DNA from: Candidatus Parcubacteria bacterium | GTDB lineage: Bacteria > Patescibacteriota > Patescibacteriia > Patescibacteriales > UBA12465 | Assembly: GCA_023444045.1 (NCBI GenBank) | Contig: JAEZRQ010000006.1 | Span: 241,786-305,785 of the forward strand | Direction of reading: 5' to 3' | DNA length: 64,000 nt | Position numbers and translations under genes: made by a program | Notes under the pieces: generated by a model | Databases searched by the model: none | Told to the model about the DNA's origin: nothing | The model's input: the letters and a program-made list of their open reading frames with translations, nothing else | In this document: piece after piece, positions 4,541 through 55,244 of the stretch | Position numbering within the stretch: the stretch's first letter is position 1 | Layout of the letters: every line of letters starts with the position of its first letter

Positions 4541-5842
4541 ATGAAAGCTAAAATTGCTACAAAAACCTTACCTGGTTTTAATGAATATCTACCAAAAGAT
4601 CAACTCGCTTTTAATAAGATGAGGGATTTAATTGTGTCTGTTTACGAATCTTTTGGCTTTTTGCCAATAGATACTCCAGTTTTAGAAAGACAAGAGGTAT
4701 TACTGGCTAAAGCCGGCGGCGAGACCGAAAAGCAGATTTATTGCTTAGAAAAAGGCGACGAGAAGTTGGCCTTACGTTTTGATTTAACCGTTCCTTTTGC
4801 TCGTTACGTCAGTGAGCATTTTGCTAATCTAGTCTTTCCTTTTAGAAGATATCAAATTGCTAAAGTCTATCGCGGCGAAAGACCACAAAGAGGGCGTTTT
4901 AGGGAATTTTATCAGGCAGATATTGATATTGTTTCTGAGGGTGAGTTATCTTTACTAGCTGATGCTGAAGTTATTAAAGTAATTAACGAGGTATTTATTA
5001 AGTTAGAGGTTGGAGCTTTTAAGATTCGTTTAAATAATCGTAAATTACTGAGCGGATTTTTAGAAAGCCTTAATTTACAGGACAAAAGCAGTGAAATTTT
5101 AATTTTAATTGACAAGTTAGATAAGGTCGGCAGCGATAAGACTCGGGCTGCTTTAGAAGAAATTACCTCCAGAGAAAAAGCTAACGATATCATGCAATTT
5201 ATTGCTATTGGCGATGATGTGTTAAATAAATTAGCGGCTTTAAAAATAAATAATGAAACTTTCAAGGCTGGTTTAGCTGAATTGACAGAACTATTAGGTT
5301 ATCTAAAAGACTTTGCTGTTTCTGAAGAAAATTATCAAATTGATTTAACTATTGCTCGCGGTTTAGATTATTACACTGGCATGGTTTGCGAAACAACTTT
5401 AGCTGATTTTCCGCAAATTGGTTCAGTTTGTTCAGGTGGCCGCTATAATAACTTAACAGCTAATTATAGTGATAAAAAATTACCGGGAGTTGGCGTTTCT
5501 ATTGGTTTGTCTCGCCTGTTTTATCAATTAAAAGAAGCTGGTTTAATAAAAGACAGTCAAGAAAATAAGGCTGATATTTTACTAATTAGCGAGAATTTAA
5601 CGACAGCCGCTAAATTAGCTGATGATTTAAGAGTGAACGGCTTATCAGTAATTGGTGTTTATGGTGATGATAAATTCAAGAAGAAGTTGAGTTTTGCCAA
5701 TCGCTTAGGCGTTAAGTGGGTTTTGATTTTAGGAGAAGATGAAATTAGCGGGGCCTATTTTTCACTAAAGGACATGCTAAGCGGTGAACAATTTAAATTA
5801 ACTGCGCTCGCCGAGATAATAGAAAAAATAAATAAAAGTTAA
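4541..5842 (+). CDS. hisS: Histidine--tRNA ligase
   Basis: 433 aa class II aaRS with RYQIAKVYRGERPQRGRFREFYQADIDI and CSGGRYNNL, both typical of HisRS. Confidence 0.9.
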   Translation: MKAKIATKTLPGFNEYLPKDQLAFNKMRDLIVSVYESFGFLPIDTPVLERQEVLLAKAGGETEKQIYCLEKGDEKLALRFDLTVPFARYVSEHFANLVFPFRRYQIAKVYRGERPQRGRFREFYQADIDIVSEGELSLLADAEVIKVINEVFIKLEVGAFKIRLNNRKLLSGFLESLNLQDKSSEILILIDKLDKVGSDKTRAALEEITSREKANDIMQFIAIGDDVLNKLAALKINNETFKAGLAELTELLGYLKDFAVSEENYQIDLTIARGLDYYTGMVCETTLADFPQIGSVCSGGRYNNLTANYSDKKLPGVGVSIGLSRLFYQLKEAGLIKDSQENKADILLISENLTTAAKLADDLRVNGLSVIGVYGDDKFKKKLSFANRLGVKWVLILGEDEISGAYFSLKDMLSGEQFKLTALAEIIEKINKS

Positions 5843-5863
5843 AATAAAATCATTCTTTTTAAC

Positions 5864-5886
5864 AAAAGGGGATTACCCCTTTTTTC
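5864..5886 (+). terminator. Rho-independent terminator after hisS
   Basis: AAAAGGGG-atta-CCCCTTTTTT. Confidence 0.75.
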
Positions 5887-5901
5887 TTGCTTAAAAATAA
5901 T

Positions 5902-7704
5902 ATGTCTTCTAAAAAATTATTGGATAAAAAAGAGGAAGAAATAAAAAACATTTCCGGCCGTGAATTTTGGTCAAAACTTTGGGAGCTACTTGCCGAAAGC
6001 CGTCGTTTAATGTTGGTGATTTTAGGTCTGACAATTTTGGCGGCTGCTTTTGATTTGCTTAAACCATATATTGTTAAGTTACTGGTTGACTCTCTCATTA
6101 ATTTTAAAAAAGAAGATTTATCAGCACTCTTAATGTTGATCGTGTTATTTTTTGCCAGTGATCAGTTTCGTTCAGTTATTTCTTATTTTAACAATTTAAG
6201 AATCTTGCAGCTTTCGGTAGATATTGAATATTACTTAGCGCTTAAAGCGCAAAATAAATTAATGTTTCTGCCGCTGGGCTATCATGAGACTGAGAATACG
6301 GGCAATAAAATTGTTAAGATTGAGCGCGGTATTAATCGTATTATGAGTTTAATGGAAAATATTTTTTGGGAAGTGGTGCCTATTTTTATTCAAATTATTT
6401 TTTCTATTTCCGCTTTATTTGTCGCTGACTATCGCTTAGGGTTGTCGTTGTTAATATTGGTACCAATATTTCTTTATCTGACGAAAAAAACTAATGAGAG
6501 GATGAGGCCATATCGCAAAGAAATGTATAAACAGTATGAGGAAGCCTCTGGAAAAATGACTCAGGGTATTATTAATATTAATGCGGTTCAATCTTTCGTT
6601 CAGGAGAATCAGGAGCTTCATGGTTTTGAAAAAATAAAACAGAAGATTAAAACCAATGAACTTTTTCAATGGTCTAAGGTGATGAAATCAGCTTTAGGGA
6701 GAAACATTTTAACTAGTTTTGGTAACACAGCTATTTTATTAATTGGTGTTTATTTGGTTTATCAAGGGGAAATTAGTGTTGGTACCCTCGTATTTGCTTT
6801 TACTATGTCAGTTAACTCATACAACGCTCTTTTTAGATTGTCTCGTTTTTATGATCGTATGGAAGAGGGGAAAGAGGGCGTTAAACGATTAATAGATTTA
6901 TTTGTTACGGAAAGTGATTTGAAAAACAAAGAAAACGCTATCGTTCCGGAAAATATTTTAGGTAATTTGGAGTTTAAAGGAGTAAGTTTTAATTATAATA
7001 ATACTGATAAGGCAGCCTTAAATAATATTAATATTAAAATACCAGCCGGACAGACGGTTGCTTTAGTTGGTCCTTCTGGATCCGGAAAAACGACTATTGC
7101 TCGTCTAATTTATCGCCATTATGATCCGATCAGTGGTGAAGTTTTATTAGACGGTATTGATCTAAGGGATTATGATCTCTATGGTTTTAGAAAATTCCTA
7201 GCAATTGTTCCTCAAGAGGTGGAGATTTTTGATGTTTCAGTTTTTGAAAATATTGCTTATGCTAAGCCAGGGGCTACTTTGGATGAAGTTGAGGCGGCGG
7301 CTAAAATTGCTAATGCCCATGAATTTATTGTGAAGCTTGATCAGGGGTATGATACTTTGGTTGGCGAGAGAGGAATTAAATTATCTGGCGGTCAAAGGCA
7401 GCGTTTAGGAATTGCGAGGGCGTTATTAGCTGATCCCAAAGTTTTAATTTTTGATGAAGCGACTTCTAGTCTTGATAGTCAAAGTGAGGCTTTAATTCAG
7501 GGGGCAATGGATAAAATTTCTCAGAACAGAACGACTATCATTATCGCTCATCGTTTAAGCACTATTAAAAAAGCGGATAAGATTATTGTTTTAGAAGAAG
7601 GAAAAGTAGTTGAGGAGGGAAGTCATCAGGAATTGTCTCATTTAGAGGGCGGTTTGTATAACAAGTTACTTAAATTACAGGAACTTGGGGAAATTAAGGA
7701 ATAA
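5902..7704 (+). CDS. ABC transporter, fused permease/ATPase (MsbA-like exporter family)
   Basis: N-terminal six-helix TMD. Walker A GPSGSGKTT, signature LSGGQRQR, Walker B LIFDEATSSLD. ATG 5902 is preferred over the TTG at 5887 used by the track. Confidence 0.9.
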   Translation: MSSKKLLDKKEEEIKNISGREFWSKLWELLAESRRLMLVILGLTILAAAFDLLKPYIVKLLVDSLINFKKEDLSALLMLIVLFFASDQFRSVISYFNNLRILQLSVDIEYYLALKAQNKLMFLPLGYHETENTGNKIVKIERGINRIMSLMENIFWEVVPIFIQIIFSISALFVADYRLGLSLLILVPIFLYLTKKTNERMRPYRKEMYKQYEEASGKMTQGIININAVQSFVQENQELHGFEKIKQKIKTNELFQWSKVMKSALGRNILTSFGNTAILLIGVYLVYQGEISVGTLVFAFTMSVNSYNALFRLSRFYDRMEEGKEGVKRLIDLFVTESDLKNKENAIVPENILGNLEFKGVSFNYNNTDKAALNNINIKIPAGQTVALVGPSGSGKTTIARLIYRHYDPISGEVLLDGIDLRDYDLYGFRKFLAIVPQEVEIFDVSVFENIAYAKPGATLDEVEAAAKIANAHEFIVKLDQGYDTLVGERGIKLSGGQRQRLGIARALLADPKVLIFDEATSSLDSQSEALIQGAMDKISQNRTTIIIAHRLSTIKKADKIIVLEEGKVVEEGSHQELSHLEGGLYNKLLKLQELGEIKE

Positions 7705-49135: not shown

Positions 49136-49224
49136 AGGTATGTAAAATGTTGATTCAACATTTTTGTTTTTTGAAGAAAAACTTAATAATTCCCGGGTAG
49201 CGCAGCGGTAGCGCAGTTGGCTGT

Positions 49225-49463
49225 GAACACGTAAAAGTTCTACGCAGCTTTCTCAAGTGATTGAGATTGAAAAACAAGGTGAATTGTCTGGAAGTCTAAG
49301 TCCGAAAGGATATGGTAATCAGCAGCCAAGCCCTGAAAGTTTCAGGGAAGGTTCAGAGACTATCCCGAAAGGGAGTAGGTCCATCCTAGGATGGCCCGAA
49401 GCGCCTTGCATCTCTCTGAGATGATGATATAGTCCACCCCTTTAGGAAACTATTGGATAAGTG
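49225..49463 (+). ncRNA. Group I self-splicing intron (no ORF), ~239 nt
   Basis: Core-like strings match remembered Tetrahymena/Azoarcus/Anabaena introns: GAUAUGGUAAUCAGCAGCCAAGCCC, GGAAGGUUCAGAGACUA and GAUAUAGUCC. GNRA-capped hairpins are UCUCAA-GUGA-UUGAGA, GUCC-GAAA-GGAU and UCCC-GAAA-GGGA. P1 pairs exon GGCUGU with GCAGCU (49244-49249), giving a U.G pair at the splice site. The intron ends in G (49463). Confidence 0.8.
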
Positions 49464-49479
49464 TAACCAATTGGTCGTC

Positions 49480-49495
49480 GGTTCGAATCCGACCC
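49480..49495 (+). repeat. Direct repeat copy 1 (inside the tRNA-Asn T-arm/acceptor 3' half)
   Basis: GGTTCGAATCCGACCC, identical to 49635-49650. Confidence 0.9.
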
Positions 49496-49562
49496 CGGGA
49501 GCCAACAACTTTTTTGTGCTGTGGACAGGCATATTTGCCCATAAAATAGCCAAAAATCAAAG

Positions 49563-49588: not shown

Positions 49589-49634
49589 GTTGCAGTCAAA
49601 CGAGTGAAAATAAGCGTAAATAAAGGAGATTTCT

Positions 49635-49650
49635 GGTTCGAATCCGACCC
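49635..49650 (+). repeat. Direct repeat copy 2: orphan tRNA 3' fragment (att-like remnant)
   Basis: GGTTCGAATCCGACCC with no upstream cloverleaf and no CCA. It lies 155 nt downstream of copy 1 and about 85 nt upstream of the R-M cassette. Confidence 0.8.
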
Positions 49651-49734
49651 ACGTCAAACAGTATTTTTAACTTTTAAATATAACAAAACTAAGCTACAAT
49701 AGAACTATATTAATAACGAAAATTCTGATTGCTT

Positions 49735-50571
49735 ATGTTGAAAAATATTTCTAAAAAAAGAGTCGAACCATTTTTGAAATGGGCTGGCGGTAAATCTCAA
49801 TTATTAGAACAATTTAAACCATTATTTCCAAAAGAAGGAACTTATAAAAGATATATTGAACCGTTTATTGGCGGAGGGGCAGTCTTTTTTTATTTAGAAC
49901 CGAAAGAGGCTATTATTTCTGATTTAAATAAAGACTTAATTGAGGCTTATAAGATTGTTAAAAGCCACCCAAAAGAGTTGATTGCCTTGTTAAAAAAATA
50001 CGAAAAAAAACATAGCAAAGAGTTTTATTTGAAAATCAGAGAAGAATATAATGCCAATAAATTAGATAAGATAAATAAGGCGGCTCATTTAATCTACTTA
50101 AATAAAACCTGTTTCAATGGTTTATATAGAGTTAATAGCAAGGGCGGATTTAATGTTCCTTTTGGACAACATAAGAAATTTTCAGTTAATGAAGAAGGAA
50201 TATTGTCAGCTAGTAAAATATTAAAAAAAACTAAAATAGAACACACCGATTTTACACAGGTTTTGAAAAATGCTAAAAAAGGAGACTTTGTTTACTTCGA
50301 TCCACCATACTATCCGTTAAATACTGGCTCAAATTTTACCACGTATACCAAGGAAAACTTTTTAGAAAAAGAACAGGAAAAACTCAAAAAAACTTTTAAG
50401 AAACTTGATGCTCGAGGGTGTATACTTATGTTAAGCAATTCAGATACTCCTTATATTAGAAAGCTATATAAAGAATGGAATATTACAAAAGTAAGTGCCA
50501 AGCGTTTCATTAATTGTATGGCGGAAAAAAGAGGTGATGTATCTGAGGTTGTGGTAAGAAACTATAAGTAA
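49735..50571 (+). CDS. Dam-family (alpha-class, D12) N6-adenine DNA methyltransferase, DpnM-like; probable GATC specificity
   Basis: N-terminal PFLKWAGGKSQLL, then PFIGGGAVFF (AdoMet motif) and FVYFDPPYYP (catalytic DPPY). Order and size match Dam/DpnM. ATG 49735 is preferred over the TTG at 49729. Confidence 0.85.
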   Translation: MLKNISKKRVEPFLKWAGGKSQLLEQFKPLFPKEGTYKRYIEPFIGGGAVFFYLEPKEAIISDLNKDLIEAYKIVKSHPKELIALLKKYEKKHSKEFYLKIREEYNANKLDKINKAAHLIYLNKTCFNGLYRVNSKGGFNVPFGQHKKFSVNEEGILSASKILKKTKIEHTDFTQVLKNAKKGDFVYFDPPYYPLNTGSNFTTYTKENFLEKEQEKLKKTFKKLDARGCILMLSNSDTPYIRKLYKEWNITKVSAKRFINCMAEKRGDVSEVVVRNYK

Positions 50572-50574
50572 GAT

Positions 50575-51354
50575 ATGTGTTTGTATAAAAAGCATAAAAA
50601 CTTTGCTCTTTATCACGGTGACTGTCTGGAAGAATTAAAAAGATTTCCAGAAAATTACTTTGATATGATCTTTGCTGACCCGCCATACTTTTTGTCGAGC
50701 GGTAGTTTTAGTTGCCAAAATGGAAAAATGGTTAGTGTCAAAAAGGGTGACTGGGATTTAAGCAAAGGATTTCAGGATGATTTTAATTTCCATTTAAATT
50801 GGATTAAAGAATGTCGCAGGGTGTTAAAACCTCATGGCACAATCTGGGTTAGCGGAACTTATCATTCTATATATCAGTGTGGTTTTATTTTACAAAACAC
50901 TAAATATCATATTTTAAATGACATTTCTTGGTTTAAACCAAATGCGGCTCCTAATCTAAGTTGTCGTTTTTTTACTGCTAGCCATGAGACTTTAATTTGG
51001 GCGAGAAAAGAAAAGAAAGCTAAGCACACTTTTAATTATCAAGACATTAAAAATGGTGATTGGTCTGAAGATGAATTTAAAAAACCATATTTACAAATGC
51101 GTTCCGTTTGGTCCATGGGCACACCGAAGAAAGAAGAGAAGCGATTCGGTAAACACCCAACTCAAAAACCTTTAGATTTATTAAAAAGAATAATACTAGC
51201 TAGCACTAAAGAAGGTGACATCGTTCTCGATCCTTTTACAGGCAGCTCAACTACTGGTGTGGCCGCTAATTTACATAAAAGAAAATTTGTTGGGATTGAT
51301 TCTGATAAAAATTATTTAGATCTTTCTTTGCAAAGATTAAATGCTCTAGTTTAA
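50575..51354 (+). CDS. Beta-class N6-adenine DNA methyltransferase, DpnA-like
   Basis: DMIFADPPYFLSSG...VSVKKGDWD, NAAPNLSCRFFTASHETLIWARK, GKHPTQKPLDLLKRIILASTKEGDIVLDPFTGSSTTGVAA. These are near-colinear with the S. pneumoniae DpnA sequence as I recall it. Confidence 0.85.
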   Translation: MCLYKKHKNFALYHGDCLEELKRFPENYFDMIFADPPYFLSSGSFSCQNGKMVSVKKGDWDLSKGFQDDFNFHLNWIKECRRVLKPHGTIWVSGTYHSIYQCGFILQNTKYHILNDISWFKPNAAPNLSCRFFTASHETLIWARKEKKAKHTFNYQDIKNGDWSEDEFKKPYLQMRSVWSMGTPKKEEKRFGKHPTQKPLDLLKRIILASTKEGDIVLDPFTGSSTTGVAANLHKRKFVGIDSDKNYLDLSLQRLNALV

Positions 51355-51359
51355 AACAT

Positions 51360-52124
51360 ATGGCTAAAAATGAATCCTGGGAACAAATATTTAAAGATTA
51401 TAAAATATTAAAACACGATTTTAATAAATCACCTTTTTGTTTATCAGCTGAACAAATAAAAGAGTCTTGTCAGAAATTTAAAAAAACTACAGAAAAAGAG
51501 GTGCGGATATTGTGTAAACAGGATAGCAGAAAGAGTCGTCCAGATATTTTTGTTTCAAATAATTTATTTATTTTACCAGTAAAAAATGGTTTTTATAACA
51601 TAATAAAAGGGGAGGGGTATGTTGATATACCAGAAATTACATCAGATATTAATGAGTACGAAACCCAATTAGATTTTTCTTTGGACTCGTCTGTAGTTGG
51701 AAATTCGGAAATGCAACATCTTGATTTTGCCTATGCATCTAGTTTAATCAGGACATTTATGGGTGATAAATCATTGGTACTGACAATAAGAGGAAGAAAA
51801 TTTACACCAGAATTCAATTTTTTTATTGGAAAGCAGAAAATAAATGTAAATAGCGTACAAACAGAAGTTGATGCTGGTTACGAAGGAAGAGAACAAATAG
51901 TTTTAATAGAGGCTAAAAATAAAAAGACAAAAGATACCGTTATACGTCAATTGTATTATCCATTTAGACAGTGGCAATCAATAACAAAGAAAAAAGTTTT
52001 AACTCTATTTTTCGAGAAAGATAAAAAAACTGGCATATATTCATTTTGGCAGTTTGGTTTTAGAAATGCAAAAGACTACAACAGTATAAAATTATTAAAA
52101 TCTGCTAGATATATAATCAAATAA
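51360..52124 (+). CDS. Uncharacterised protein with a PD-(D/E)XK-like motif, inserted between the DpnA-like and DpnII-like genes
   Basis: 254 aa. A candidate nuclease motif sits in VQTEVDAGYEGREQIVLIEAKNKK (D-x12-E-x-K). No resemblance to DpnI, DpnII or MutH by eye. Gaps of 5 nt on both sides. Confidence 0.5.
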   Translation: MAKNESWEQIFKDYKILKHDFNKSPFCLSAEQIKESCQKFKKTTEKEVRILCKQDSRKSRPDIFVSNNLFILPVKNGFYNIIKGEGYVDIPEITSDINEYETQLDFSLDSSVVGNSEMQHLDFAYASSLIRTFMGDKSLVLTIRGRKFTPEFNFFIGKQKINVNSVQTEVDAGYEGREQIVLIEAKNKKTKDTVIRQLYYPFRQWQSITKKKVLTLFFEKDKKTGIYSFWQFGFRNAKDYNSIKLLKSARYIIK

Positions 52125-52129
52125 GTTAT

Positions 52130-53047
52130 ATGAAGTTTATTAAATTCTATCAAGAAGTTTTAGGGTGTAAAAATGAAGATGAAGTCTTTACTTATTTTCT
52201 GAATAATTTAAAGCCAAGTAATATGCTTTGGTCTTATTTTGTTAATTGGGAAAAGGTATTTGAAAATACTAGTAAAATAGAATTAGCATTAAATAATTTA
52301 AATTATTTAATAGGCAAAGAAGATTTTGATAAAGCTTTTAGATTTTTAGTTAAAGAAAATCAAGAAATAATAAAAGTAATTCCTGCATTAGTCGTTCGTG
52401 ATGGAAAAAATAATACTAAGTTCAAGATTCTAGTTGATTATTCAAAGAAAAAATTGGTATATGAAGACTATGATTTTTCTAAAAAAGAAATAACCGATAA
52501 AGATATTGAAAACTATTTGTTGTTTGTAAAAGAAACAGGACTCAAAGATTTAATAGTTTCGCAAAGAATTAAAAACCTTGTTGATTACATGATTGGAGTT
52601 GAGGCTGGGTTGGATAGTAATGGGCGAAAAAATAGAGGAGGTCATTCAATGGAAGATATCGTCGGATTTTTTGTTGCAGACATTTGTAAAACCAAAAAAT
52701 TTAAATATCTAAAAGAGGCTACTGCTGAAAAAATAAAAGCCGAATGGGGCTATGACGTCCCAGTTGATAAATCTTCTCGTCGTTATGATTATGTTATTAA
52801 TACTGGCAAAGAGCTAATTATTTTTGAGACAAATTTTTATGGCGGTGGTGGCTCAAAATTAAAATCAACAGCAGGAGAATATAGAGATTTATTTAATGTT
52901 TTAAATGGACAATATAAGTTTATTTGGATTACTGACGGTAAAGGATGGGTCGGTACATCTAGACCATTAAGAGAAACTTTTAATCATAATGATTATATTT
53001 TTAGCTTAGGGATGATTGAGAAAGGGGTATTAAATTATATTATTTAA
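52130..53047 (+). CDS. DpnII/MboI-family type II restriction endonuclease (probable GATC)
   Basis: NLVDYMIGVEAGLDSNGRKNRGGHSMEDIV and LIIFETNFYGGGGSKLKSTAGEY...FIWITDGKGW parallel remembered R.DpnII strings (NLVDYVTGVEVGMDTNGRKNRTG; EVNFYSGSGSKLNE; WITDGQGW). Confidence 0.85.
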   Translation: MKFIKFYQEVLGCKNEDEVFTYFLNNLKPSNMLWSYFVNWEKVFENTSKIELALNNLNYLIGKEDFDKAFRFLVKENQEIIKVIPALVVRDGKNNTKFKILVDYSKKKLVYEDYDFSKKEITDKDIENYLLFVKETGLKDLIVSQRIKNLVDYMIGVEAGLDSNGRKNRGGHSMEDIVGFFVADICKTKKFKYLKEATAEKIKAEWGYDVPVDKSSRRYDYVINTGKELIIFETNFYGGGGSKLKSTAGEYRDLFNVLNGQYKFIWITDGKGWVGTSRPLRETFNHNDYIFSLGMIEKGVLNYII

Positions 53048-53310: not shown

Positions 53311-53559
53311 ATGGCTAGAAAGATAAGCTAAGATATTAGGGATAAAATAGTCGATAAAATAAAAAATGACGGCATGTCCGCCATTAAAGCCGCTCAAGAA
53401 TTTGGGATCTCGACTAATACGATATATAACTGGCTGGGACGAGGAAAAATTGGCTCCGATACTCTGGAGATAGGCAAGCTCAAACGAGAAAACCAACAGC
53501 TAAAACTAATCATTGCCGAACTAATGCTCGATTCGAGTAAGGGGAAAAAAAATCGCTAA
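53311..53559 (+). pseudogene. IS3 OrfA (HTH) with an in-frame TAA at codon 7
   Basis: MARKIS*DIRDKIVDKIKNDGMSAIKAAQEFGISTNTIYNWL...LKRENQQLKLIIAEL. The TAA at 53329-53331 is in the same frame as track ORF 53374-53559. Confidence 0.8.
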
Positions 53560-54379
53560 GGCCAGAAAGTTAGCGGTTGCTAATAACGGGATGATTGATA
53601 AGAAAAAACTGGCCATTAAACTAGGCATAGCCAGATCAACTCTGTATTATCGGTCAAAGAAAAAAGCTAAGGATGATGAGATTAAAAAAGAGATTATTGA
53701 GGTAATGGAATCTAATCCCGCCTATGGTTATAGACGAGTGGCTATTGCTCTAGATATGAACGAGAAGCCGGTAGCGAGGATAATGAAAATTAATGAGCTA
53801 AAACCACGGCTATGTAGGCGTAAATGGCAAAAGAAGGGCGATATTGGCCTGCCGGTGGCTCAATATGTCAATGAGATTAAGAAAATTGAAATACTAGAAC
53901 CAAATACTGTCTGGATAGCTGATTTCACCTATATTAAATACCGGACATCCTGGCTCTATCTGGCGACAGTGATGGATAGTTACACCGGAGAAGTAATCGG
54001 CGCGGCGATATCAAACAGGCATAATAGATTTTTAGTTAAATCGGCTGCGCTTGATGCCATTAAAAAAAGAGGTCTCTTGCTTCAATACTTCCACAGCGAT
54101 CAGGGCTCTAAATACCAGAGCGAAGAGCATGCCGACTTTCTAGCTAGATTAGGGGTAGTGGTTTCCATGAGCCGGAAAGGCTCTCCTTGGGAAAACGGTG
54201 GTCAAGAGTCATTCTTCTCGCACTATAAACTGGAACTGGGAAATGTTAATAGATTTGAAAGCGAAGGAGAACTGATTGCTAATATTTATAATTAGATATA
54301 TTATTTTAATAACGTGAGAATCAAGACGAAACTCAGAATGGCTCCAGCTAAGTTTTACGAACTGACCGCCAAAGGTTGA
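53525..54379 (+). pseudogene. IS3 OrfB (DDE transposase) with an in-frame TAG
   Basis: DDE residues lie in WIADFTY, HSDQGSKY and WENGGQESFF. After the TAG at 54293-54295 the frame continues IYYFNNVRIKTKLRMAPAKFYELTAKG to TGA 54377-54379. OrfB is in the +1 frame relative to OrfA across an A8 run (53545-53552). Confidence 0.8.
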
Positions 54380-54491: not shown

Positions 54492-55244
54492 ATGTTTAAA
54501 GAGCTTTTTAAATATGGATCCGGCCCAACTCAAGTAAAGAGAGAGTACAATAGAAGATATAATTTATATGTAACACCACTTTATCTTTTGATGTTTTTTA
54601 TTTTTTTAAGTTGCGCCTTAGCTCTTTATTCAATAGTGTTTAGCGACCACTATTACTTTATTATTATCTTTTTATTTATTTTAGGACTAACCTATATTTT
54701 TGTAAATTTTTTTGGCAGAAAAATATTAAAAAATGAATATAGTTATGGGATTGGAAATATGGCGGAAGAATCAACAGTGGCGAAGTTAACATTATTAGGT
54801 GATGAGTTTAAAGTTATAAATGACATTTCTAAAGGGGAAGATAAAGAGAATATTGATCATGTAGTTGTTGGTCCGACTGGGGTATTCGTAATTGAAACCA
54901 AAAGTAATATTAAAAGTAGTATTTTTTATTATAAAAATGGATTAAGAAAAACAAGTAATTTTGGTTATAAGGCAATAAAGCAAGTATCTAGAAATGCGGT
55001 TTGGATAGGTAAAAAAATTAATGAATATTTAAATACAGGTATTTGGGTTCAAGGATTAGTAGTAAGACCATTAAAAGAGAATAATGTGCTCCAATGTTAT
55101 TTTAATAATAAAGTTTGTGTTCTAAGTGGTGACGAAATCTTTAAATATATAAAAGACTATAAATATAAGTTAAGCGCGAGAGAAATTGGTGAGATTTATA
55201 CTTTATTAGTAAAAATAAAAAAAACATCTAATATAAAGATATAG
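54492..55244 (+). CDS. Membrane-anchored NERD (nuclease-related domain) protein
   Basis: Two N-terminal TM helices are followed by GNMAEESTVAKLTLLGDEFKVINDISKGEDKENIDHVVVGPTGVFVIETKS, the typical NERD pattern (IDH..v...G.f.IE.K). Confidence 0.75.
   Translation: MFKELFKYGSGPTQVKREYNRRYNLYVTPLYLLMFFIFLSCALALYSIVFSDHYYFIIIFLFILGLTYIFVNFFGRKILKNEYSYGIGNMAEESTVAKLTLLGDEFKVINDISKGEDKENIDHVVVGPTGVFVIETKSNIKSSIFYYKNGLRKTSNFGYKAIKQVSRNAVWIGKKINEYLNTGIWVQGLVVRPLKENNVLQCYFNNKVCVLSGDEIFKYIKDYKYKLSAREIGEIYTLLVKIKKTSNIKI

Follow-up and report, generated by a model that had tools for sequence, protein, structure and literature searches.

Organisation of the cassette and its surroundings

Four genes on the plus strand of the window, the 64,000-nucleotide stretch of DNA analysed here, form a tight operon with intergenic gaps of 3 to 5 bp. 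It is headed by M1 (49729-50571), which encodes a D12-class, Dam/DpnM-like N6-adenine DNA methyltransferase, and continues with M2 (50575-51354), which encodes a DpnA/LlaDCHI-B-like beta-class N6-adenine methyltransferase (N6_N4). The third gene, R2 (51360-52124), begins with an ATG 5 bp past the end of M2 and encodes a 254-aa protein of the DUF6996+DUF6997 family, predicted to be a PD-(D/E)XK Type II restriction endonuclease. The last gene, R1 (52130-53047), starts 5 bp past the end of R2 and encodes a DpnII-family restriction endonuclease. A preliminary description of this DNA had drawn attention to R2 as a reading frame lying inside a restriction-modification cassette. The frame exists as described there, with the same position and length and with the quoted peptide in its translation, and it is indeed embedded, with two methyltransferase genes upstream and the DpnII-family gene downstream. 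R1 matched the Pfam DpnII profile over positions 2-277 of 278 (2.7e-88) and PADLOC REase_II (1.1e-85), and it belongs to a 64-member cluster at 90% identity in which most named members carry the name type II restriction enzyme or endonuclease. A promoter and terminator scan over the cassette did no better than on shuffled sequence.

ARAGORN reported no tRNA beside the cassette. Rfam identified a group I intron (RF00028, 49215-49456, 83 bits, E 1e-20) in a tRNA gene at 49195-49506 (plus strand), and ARAGORN misses this tRNA because the intron interrupts the gene. The sequence of the tRNA 3′ end (ggttcgaatccgaccc) recurs at 49634-49650, ~80 bp upstream of the cassette, and this repeat resembles an att-site duplicate left by an integration event. 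Directly downstream of the cassette, at 53374-54295, lies a transposase consisting of an IS630-type HTH ORF and then an ORF with HTH_21 and an rve integrase core, and a membrane-anchored NERD-domain protein is encoded farther downstream at 54492-55244. Flanked by the tRNA upstream and by the transposase and NERD-domain protein downstream, the cassette has the appearance of a small islet, mobile or defensive.

R2 belongs to a separate family of predicted PD-(D/E)XK nucleases

R2 had been called unrecognised, which profile searches did not bear out. Its N-terminal domain (aa 4-81, 51369-51602) matched Pfam DUF6996 over the full profile (positions 1-71 of 71; 2.9e-22, 78.9 bits, cut-off 27), and its nuclease domain (aa 83-252, 51606-52115), which holds the predicted PD-(D/E)XK core, matched DUF6997 over positions 2-175 of 175 (2.2e-52, 178.1 bits, cut-off 27). 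The PADLOC REase_II model PDLC03513 ("Type II restriction enzyme") was matched over profile positions 10-248 of 426 (E 4.1e-34); the stretch left uncovered is the C-terminal part of longer family members (DUF7226, winged-helix), which R2 lacks. Nothing meaningful was returned from NCBIfam, PHROGs or the PDB sequence search. At E<=10, the latter gave a single chance-level match to a kelch protein (E 1.6) and no MutH chain, though the library contains MutH chains. No characterised member was found in NCBIfam (short and long forms), among PDB sequences or in the literature, although one may exist under another name, and a literature search retrieved no papers naming DUF6996, DUF6997, DUF7226 or PDLC03513.

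The absence of any resemblance to DpnII, MutH or Sau3AI, previously judged by eye, was upheld by direct comparison. BLASTP against the neighbouring DpnII gave E 0.49, hhalign against a DpnII-family profile gave a probability of 0.35%, and there was no match to Pfam DpnII (PF04556); Pfam returned only the two DUF families, and the PDB search, as noted, no MutH chain. By sequence, R2 thus falls outside both the DpnII/MboI family (PF04556) and the MutH/Sau3AI family.

The D-x12-E-x-K motif that had been proposed as a PD-(D/E)XK core is real and is kept across the family beyond chance. It consists of D171 (codon GAT, 51870-51872), the 'D' of the motif, 12 intervening residues, and E184-A185-K186 (GAG GCT AAA, 51909-51917; E184 at 51909-51911, K186 at 51915-51917), the '(D/E)XK' part. 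E117 (GAA, 51708-51710), in a GNSEMQHLD motif, is the predicted first metal-binding acidic residue, and Q197 (CAA, 51948-51950), in an RQLYYP motif, lies in the helix after the ExK strand, a placement like that of the Q...Y motif of RecB/Cas4-type nucleases. Among 150 family representatives, taken as clusters at 50% identity, E117 is conserved in 96%, D171 in 96%, E184 in 94%, K186 in 98% and Q197 in 97%, and the copy in the window keeps all five. Degenerate catalytic residues were seen in 8 of ~135 scored members. In the DUF6996 domain, which is modelled with high confidence, W7, R49 and P61 are near-invariant; the domain possibly serves in DNA recognition.

An AlphaFold2 model of R2 built on 56 homologues reached a pLDDT of 86.8 and a pTM of 0.84, with E117 in a low-confidence loop (residues 116-118). 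Structure prediction followed by Foldseek, as had been suggested for this protein, returned a PD-(D/E)XK nuclease fold, with the alpha/beta core (alpha-beta-beta-beta-alpha-beta) of that superfamily predicted. The top match in the PDB was the Cas4-family protein ACE1 (E 6e-4, probability 1.0), followed by Cas4 SSO0001, Hjc, McrC and the AdnAB nuclease, and the viral library gave RecB-like exonucleases and PD-(D/E)XK proteins. All consistent partial matches from the PDB and viral libraries were PD-(D/E)XK nucleases, which together with the conserved residues argues for the proposed core as far as a predicted structure can. No solved structure in the PDB resembled R2 over its whole length. The only whole-length structural match was a 272-aa viral protein, BFVD A0A3Q8I661 (Foldseek E 1.8e-13, TM 0.77, 16% identity).

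Relative to its counterparts in two closely related cassettes (L017 and L018, see below), R2 has a dN/dS of ~0.06, with dS near saturation, compared with ~0.07 for DpnII, and the value for R2 holds also in the lineage in which DpnII has decayed. Based on this ratio, the full-length Pfam matches, the conserved catalytic residues and the predicted fold, R2 is an intact gene under selection, and its product would be a PD-(D/E)XK nuclease belonging to a separate family.

The R2 family is large and includes long and fused forms

An exhaustive HMMER search placed ~1000 clusters at 50% identity in the R2 family, with at least 445 loci in GTDB species-representative genomes. The short form, of ~255 aa, is 60-75% identical across phyla and is found in Patescibacteria, Gammaproteobacteria, Bacteroidota, Treponema, Planctomycetota, Thermodesulfobacteriota, Endomicrobia and Altiarchaeales, the archaeal occurrence being in an Altiarchaeales metagenome bin. 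The family is also present on plasmids of lactic acid bacteria. A tblastn search of phage genomes found no homologue.

A long form of ~425 aa consists of the short form with a C-terminal DUF7226/AAA_assoc_C extension; in a model with a pLDDT of 93.4, the extension matched winged-helix domains of the MarR, PadR and Sso10a types. Some long forms of lactic acid bacteria are named "type II restriction enzyme" in NCBI and UniRef and others "hypothetical protein". On the plasmids NZ_CP120149.1, CP118826.1 and NZ_CP046365.1 (Mammaliicoccus, Staphylococcus, Macrococcoides), long forms are called "translation elongation factor", apparently in error; one of these, from Mammaliicoccus, was examined and adjoins a DNA adenine methylase gene.

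The family also includes fusions. An N-terminal D12 methyltransferase is joined to R2 in P0148, P0150 and P0204, and a Schlafen/AlbA_2 domain to an R2-family domain in P0245. In a single metagenomic representative of 517 aa, P0125, an R2-like domain is fused to a MutH-like domain. The latter has an intact D...ELK motif and matches E. coli MutH with E 1e-6, and the R2-like domain has lost catalytic residues, with K, S and V at positions 117, 171 and 184. This recalls the logic of Sau3AI, in which a catalytic domain is combined with a degenerate site-binding domain, and the residues of P0125 are consistent with its R2 module acting as a GATC-binding module.

R2 homologues are linked to adenine methyltransferase genes

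We examined 80 loci from GTDB representatives, together with metagenomic and plasmid loci, and searched all ORFs with the four proteins of the window. In 78 of the 80 GTDB loci an adenine methyltransferase gene adjoins R2; the remaining two are contig fragments. The commonest arrangement is M2-R2 (42/80), and another N6_N4-like methylase precedes R2 in four loci. A D12-class M1-type gene lies directly before R2, with no M2 downstream, in 12 loci; ten of these are plain M1-R2 and two (L081 and L084) have additional methylase-like ORFs upstream. The order M1-R2-M2 occurs in ten loci and M1-M2-R2 in three, and R2-M2 stands at a contig start in two. DpnII is also present in five (L017, L023, L065, L086 and L087): L017 has the gene order of the window, L023, L065 and L086 have M1-DpnII-R2-M2, and L087 is a variant. 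Overall, the partner is DpnA-like in 46 loci and DpnM/Dam-like in 12, and other loci carry both. R2 thus takes the nuclease slot in cassettes of both DpnII and MboI order that have no DpnII gene. Five plasmid loci were examined. In four of them, from Megamonas, Stanieria, Lactiplantibacillus and Enterococcus, a gene named "DNA adenine methylase" immediately precedes the long form, and its stop codon often overlaps the start codon of the nuclease gene; in the fifth, from Mammaliicoccus, the two genes lie side by side but are divergent.

Besides methyltransferases, no recurrent gene family was found near R2 in the 80 GTDB loci. In a Parachlamydiales contig (L001, positions 5563-5991; likewise L002 and L003), a 142-aa ORF with no Pfam match lies between the M2-like methylase and R2 and could be a controller or another small protein. 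In L007-L012, which have a Nealsonbacteria-type context, a 302-aa protein with no Pfam match follows R2 (for example, L007 5951-6859); it is close in size to DpnII (305 aa), and phmmer found no DpnII likeness.

The pairing of R2 with a methyltransferase gene is characteristic of restriction-modification systems made up of two genes. Taking profile matches, modelled fold and neighbourhood together, R2 would be classed with its own DUF family, with the PD-(D/E)XK superfamily and, by genomic definition, with Type II restriction genes. Several roles had been listed for it in the preliminary description, and methyltransferase linkage and nuclease fold favour that of a second restriction enzyme. A methyl-directed enzyme is excluded because of the linkage to adenine methyltransferase genes in 78 of 80 loci, and a subunit specific to the neighbouring DpnII, whether for specificity or regulation, because most R2 homologues occur without DpnII. 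The idea of a part of a new system found no support.

Two unrelated methyltransferases accompany R2

M1 matched Pfam MethyltransfD12 (3.4e-67) and the NCBIfam dam subfamily (305 bits), and its best PDB sequence match was DpnM (2DPM) over the full length (256 bits). Two elements equivalent to the residues with which E. coli Dam contacts GATC are intact in M1, namely the FNGLYR...FNVPFG hairpin and the K-W-xGGK motif. Of the 37 M1-type neighbours of R2, 32 have the [FY]NGL.R...FNVP.G hairpin and 36 have the K-W-xGGK lysine.

M2 matched Pfam N6_N4_Mtase (7.3e-59). On pSRQ700, the LlaDCHI cassette has the order methylase, methylase, restriction endonuclease; M2 shares 53% identity with the second of these methylases, and only ~43% with Sinorhizobium matches from the same search, which are presumably CcrM-type. 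By sequence, the best solved relative of M2 is the GANTC methylase CcrM (197 bits), and the NCBIfam CcrM model scored 242 bits, with a model cut-off of 830. The DpnII system, where the roles of DpnM, DpnA and DpnII have been described, is the known example of these two methylase families working together, and in it DpnM and DpnA both methylate GATC (PMC3812788).

R2 proteins linked only to M2 and those linked only to M1 share ~65% identity (range 56-71%), no lower than within either class. Because identity between the classes is as high as within them, a single nuclease family would appear to be protectable by either of two unrelated methylase families.

R2 and DpnII substitute for each other

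Cassettes closely related to that of the window differ in their nuclease content. In L103, M1, M2 and DpnII are 90%, 94% and 86% identical to those of the window and R2 is missing. L018 carries an intact R2 (87% identical) with M1 and M2 at 94% and 93%, and directly after R2, at L018 6781-6943, a DpnII pseudogene remnant that covers residues 1-57 and is broken by stops and a frameshift. L017 has all four genes, as does the window. Near-identical cassettes thus hold DpnII only, R2 with a DpnII remnant, or both, so that one nuclease takes the place of the other while the methylases stay the same. Direct adjacency of R2 and DpnII was seen in six independent loci and in two different gene orders.

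In another locus (L101 1453-4918, JGI Ga0172379_10000122), the DpnII of which is 89% identical to that of the window, a GmrSD (Type IV) gene lies between the N6_N4 methylase and DpnII, and an Mrr-type gene follows. The junction between methylase and DpnII seems to tolerate insertions and to host other nuclease genes repeatedly.

Evidence for GATC as the probable target site

Motif depletion was surveyed across 22 motifs in 69 R2 loci (689 kb). GATC was the most depleted 4-bp palindrome, with an observed/expected ratio of 0.55 in this set, which includes no R2-less genomes as a control. It was the lowest of the 22 motifs in each class of locus, at 0.70 in M2-only, 0.51 in M1+M2 and 0.21 in M1-only loci, the margin in M2-only loci being small (0.70 versus 0.72 for the next motif). 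All ten NGATCN contexts were depleted (0.31-0.75). GANTC was not depleted, with ratios of 0.93, 0.80 and 0.82 in M2-only, M1+M2 and M1-only loci. In the 64-kb window alone, GATC depletion is mild (0.71) and would be expected from DpnII anyway.

The most depleted 4-bp palindrome in the window is TCGA, with 27 sites observed and 95 expected (ratio 0.28), a possible sign that another part of the genome encodes a TaqI-like restriction system for TCGA.

For GATC as the site of R2, the support is indirect but convergent, and six independent lines point to it. Three come from sequence comparison, namely the DpnM-like M1, the LlaDCHI-like M2 and the identity of R2 proteins across methylase classes; the others suggesting the same site are the swap series with DpnII, the depletion of GATC and the MutH fusion in P0125. 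GANTC, a HinfI-type specificity, was also considered and was rejected on the comparison with LlaDCHI on pSRQ700, the L103 cassette and the motif-depletion test.

Interpretation

R2 is probably a Mg2+-dependent PD-(D/E)XK endonuclease for unmethylated GATC that is blocked by G6mATC and is redundant with the adjacent DpnII. It would act as a Type II restriction endonuclease in its own right, with no sequence relationship to DpnII/MboI or to MutH/Sau3AI and with E117, D171, E184 and K186 forming the active site for Mg2+-dependent cutting at unmethylated GATC. N6-methyladenine placed on GATC by the DpnM-like M1 and the DpnA-like M2 would block cutting. Co-transcription of R2 with R1 would mean that a single site is served by two methylases and by two nucleases of unrelated families, R2 working alongside the DpnII-family enzyme, whose gene starts 5 bp farther on, and duplicating its function. 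Computed support comprises an intact and selected gene, the predicted fold and catalytic residues, methyltransferase linkage, interchangeability with DpnII and avoidance of GATC by the hosts. Beyond these observations we infer the catalytic activity of R2, its GATC specificity and methylation sensitivity, the position of cleavage and the oligomeric state; methylation sensitivity is implied by the co-occurrence of R2 with N6-adenine methylases. Several points weigh against this reading: E117 lies in a low-confidence loop of the model, the depletion survey covered only loci with R2 and gave a small margin in M2-only loci, GATC depletion in the window is mild, and two isospecific nucleases in one operon bring no obvious benefit.

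Two other readings keep the GATC target, and we consider both unlikely. In one, R2 and DpnII are non-redundant: R2 would cover substrates or conditions refractory to DpnII, or would cut GATC at another position or as a nickase. Its own targets may include otherwise-modified phage DNA, single-stranded or hemimethylated intermediates, and phages with a DpnII inhibitor. If this is so, the recurrent pairing of the two nucleases (six loci, two orders) would represent a selected two-layer GATC defence and not an accident of recombination.

In the other, of similarly low probability, R2 is a GATC-directed nuclease with a non-classical role, as a MutH-like strand-specific nickase or as an accessory or effector partner of another nuclease. 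The MutH-like domain fused to one family member (P0125), the likeness of the winged-helix domains of long forms to effector domains of other enzymes, and the position of R2 directly beside DpnII in six independent loci all suit such a role. However, R2 and the methyltransferase are the only conserved genes in >90% of loci, and the family is spread patchily across phyla, including plasmids and mobile islets, as restriction-modification systems are. Moreover, stand-alone forms keep the catalytic residues whereas the R2 domain of the MutH fusion has lost them, and an intact R2 persists where DpnII has decayed (L018).

Less probable still is that M2 and R2 make up a separate restriction-modification system of another specificity (for example, GANTC, of CcrM/HinfI type) that is nested by chance between the methylase and the nuclease of a DpnII system. 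That M2-R2 is the commonest arrangement (42/80) and that CcrM is the best solved relative of M2 (197 bits, and 242 bits with the NCBIfam model) speak for it, but the model score is far below its cut-off of 830, and M2 shares 53% identity with the second LlaDCHI methyltransferase and 94% with its counterpart in the canonical M1-M2-DpnII cassette of L103, which has no R2. In 12 loci and on plasmids, moreover, a Dam/DpnM-like methylase is the sole partner of R2, which is still ~65% identical there; in M2-only loci, GANTC stands at 0.93 and GATC is lowest. We give hardly any credence to R2 being an inactive relic or a DNA-binding protein without catalysis that is tolerated thanks to the methylases, for although 8 of ~135 scored members have degenerate residues, the window copy keeps E117, D171, E184, K186 and Q197, its dN/dS is ~0.06 and it is full length against both Pfam models.

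With R2 as a probable second GATC enzyme, the kind of system is already known, and Pfam (as DUFs), PADLOC and some NCBI names already list the R2 family among putative restriction enzymes. What is new is the proposed assignment to GATC, the size and conservation of the family, and a double-nuclease cassette built from two families. If confirmed, R2 would represent a further sequence-unrelated GATC-restricting family alongside DpnII/MboI and Sau3AI, and one that is unusually abundant and, with 60-70% identity across phyla, unusually well conserved for a restriction enzyme. Many members are still labelled 'hypothetical protein', and the annotation of defence systems and methylomes in many genomes would improve. 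The cassettes with DpnII only, R2 only and both form a natural series for asking why cells keep two nucleases per site. The finding merits a bench test; it is unlikely to surprise a specialist and leaves the view of restriction-modification unchanged.

Comparison with known systems

The cassette has the same gene order and the same two methyltransferase classes as the GATC cassettes DpnII and LlaDCHI (dpnM-dpnA-dpnB), and its last gene is a true DpnII-family enzyme. It differs in having an extra nuclease gene, R2, between dpnA and dpnB, and neither sequence nor profile comparison revealed any likeness of R2 to DpnII. The MboI system, which also acts on GATC, has the order M-R-M, and in ten loci R2 occupies the position of R.MboI between a D12 methylase and an N6_N4 methylase. 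R.MboI belongs to the DpnII Pfam family, whose model R2 does not match. A GATC system of Prevotella intermedia uses an MboI homologue, and a methylome study of Campylobacter coli has no bearing on the R2 family.

MutH and Sau3AI are PD-(D/E)XK nucleases for GATC, the same target as proposed for R2, and P0125 carries a MutH-like domain; R2, in contrast, has no sequence match to them and consists of a single nuclease domain with a small N-terminal domain. The best structural matches to the R2 core are nucleases of the Cas4/RecB and Hjc types, with which it has the E...D...ExK...Q arrangement in common. These matches cover only ~100-140 residues (TM ~0.25), however, and R2 lacks the Fe-S cysteines and has a wholly different genomic context. 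DpnI combines a PD-(D/E)XK domain with a winged-helix domain (PMC4081073). This layout is common to the long forms of the R2 family (~425 aa), whereas the short form in the window has no winged helix. DpnI requires methylated GATC and is incompatible with Dam-type methylation, while R2 is almost always linked to an adenine methylase.

To our knowledge, the nearest precedent for two methylases and two nucleases is SsuDAT1I of Streptococcus suis, a GATC cassette in which two methyltransferases and two isoschizomeric restriction genes are encoded in one operon. Both of its nucleases are DpnII/LlaDCHI-like paralogues. The cassette described here is set apart from it by its two nucleases, which come from unrelated families.
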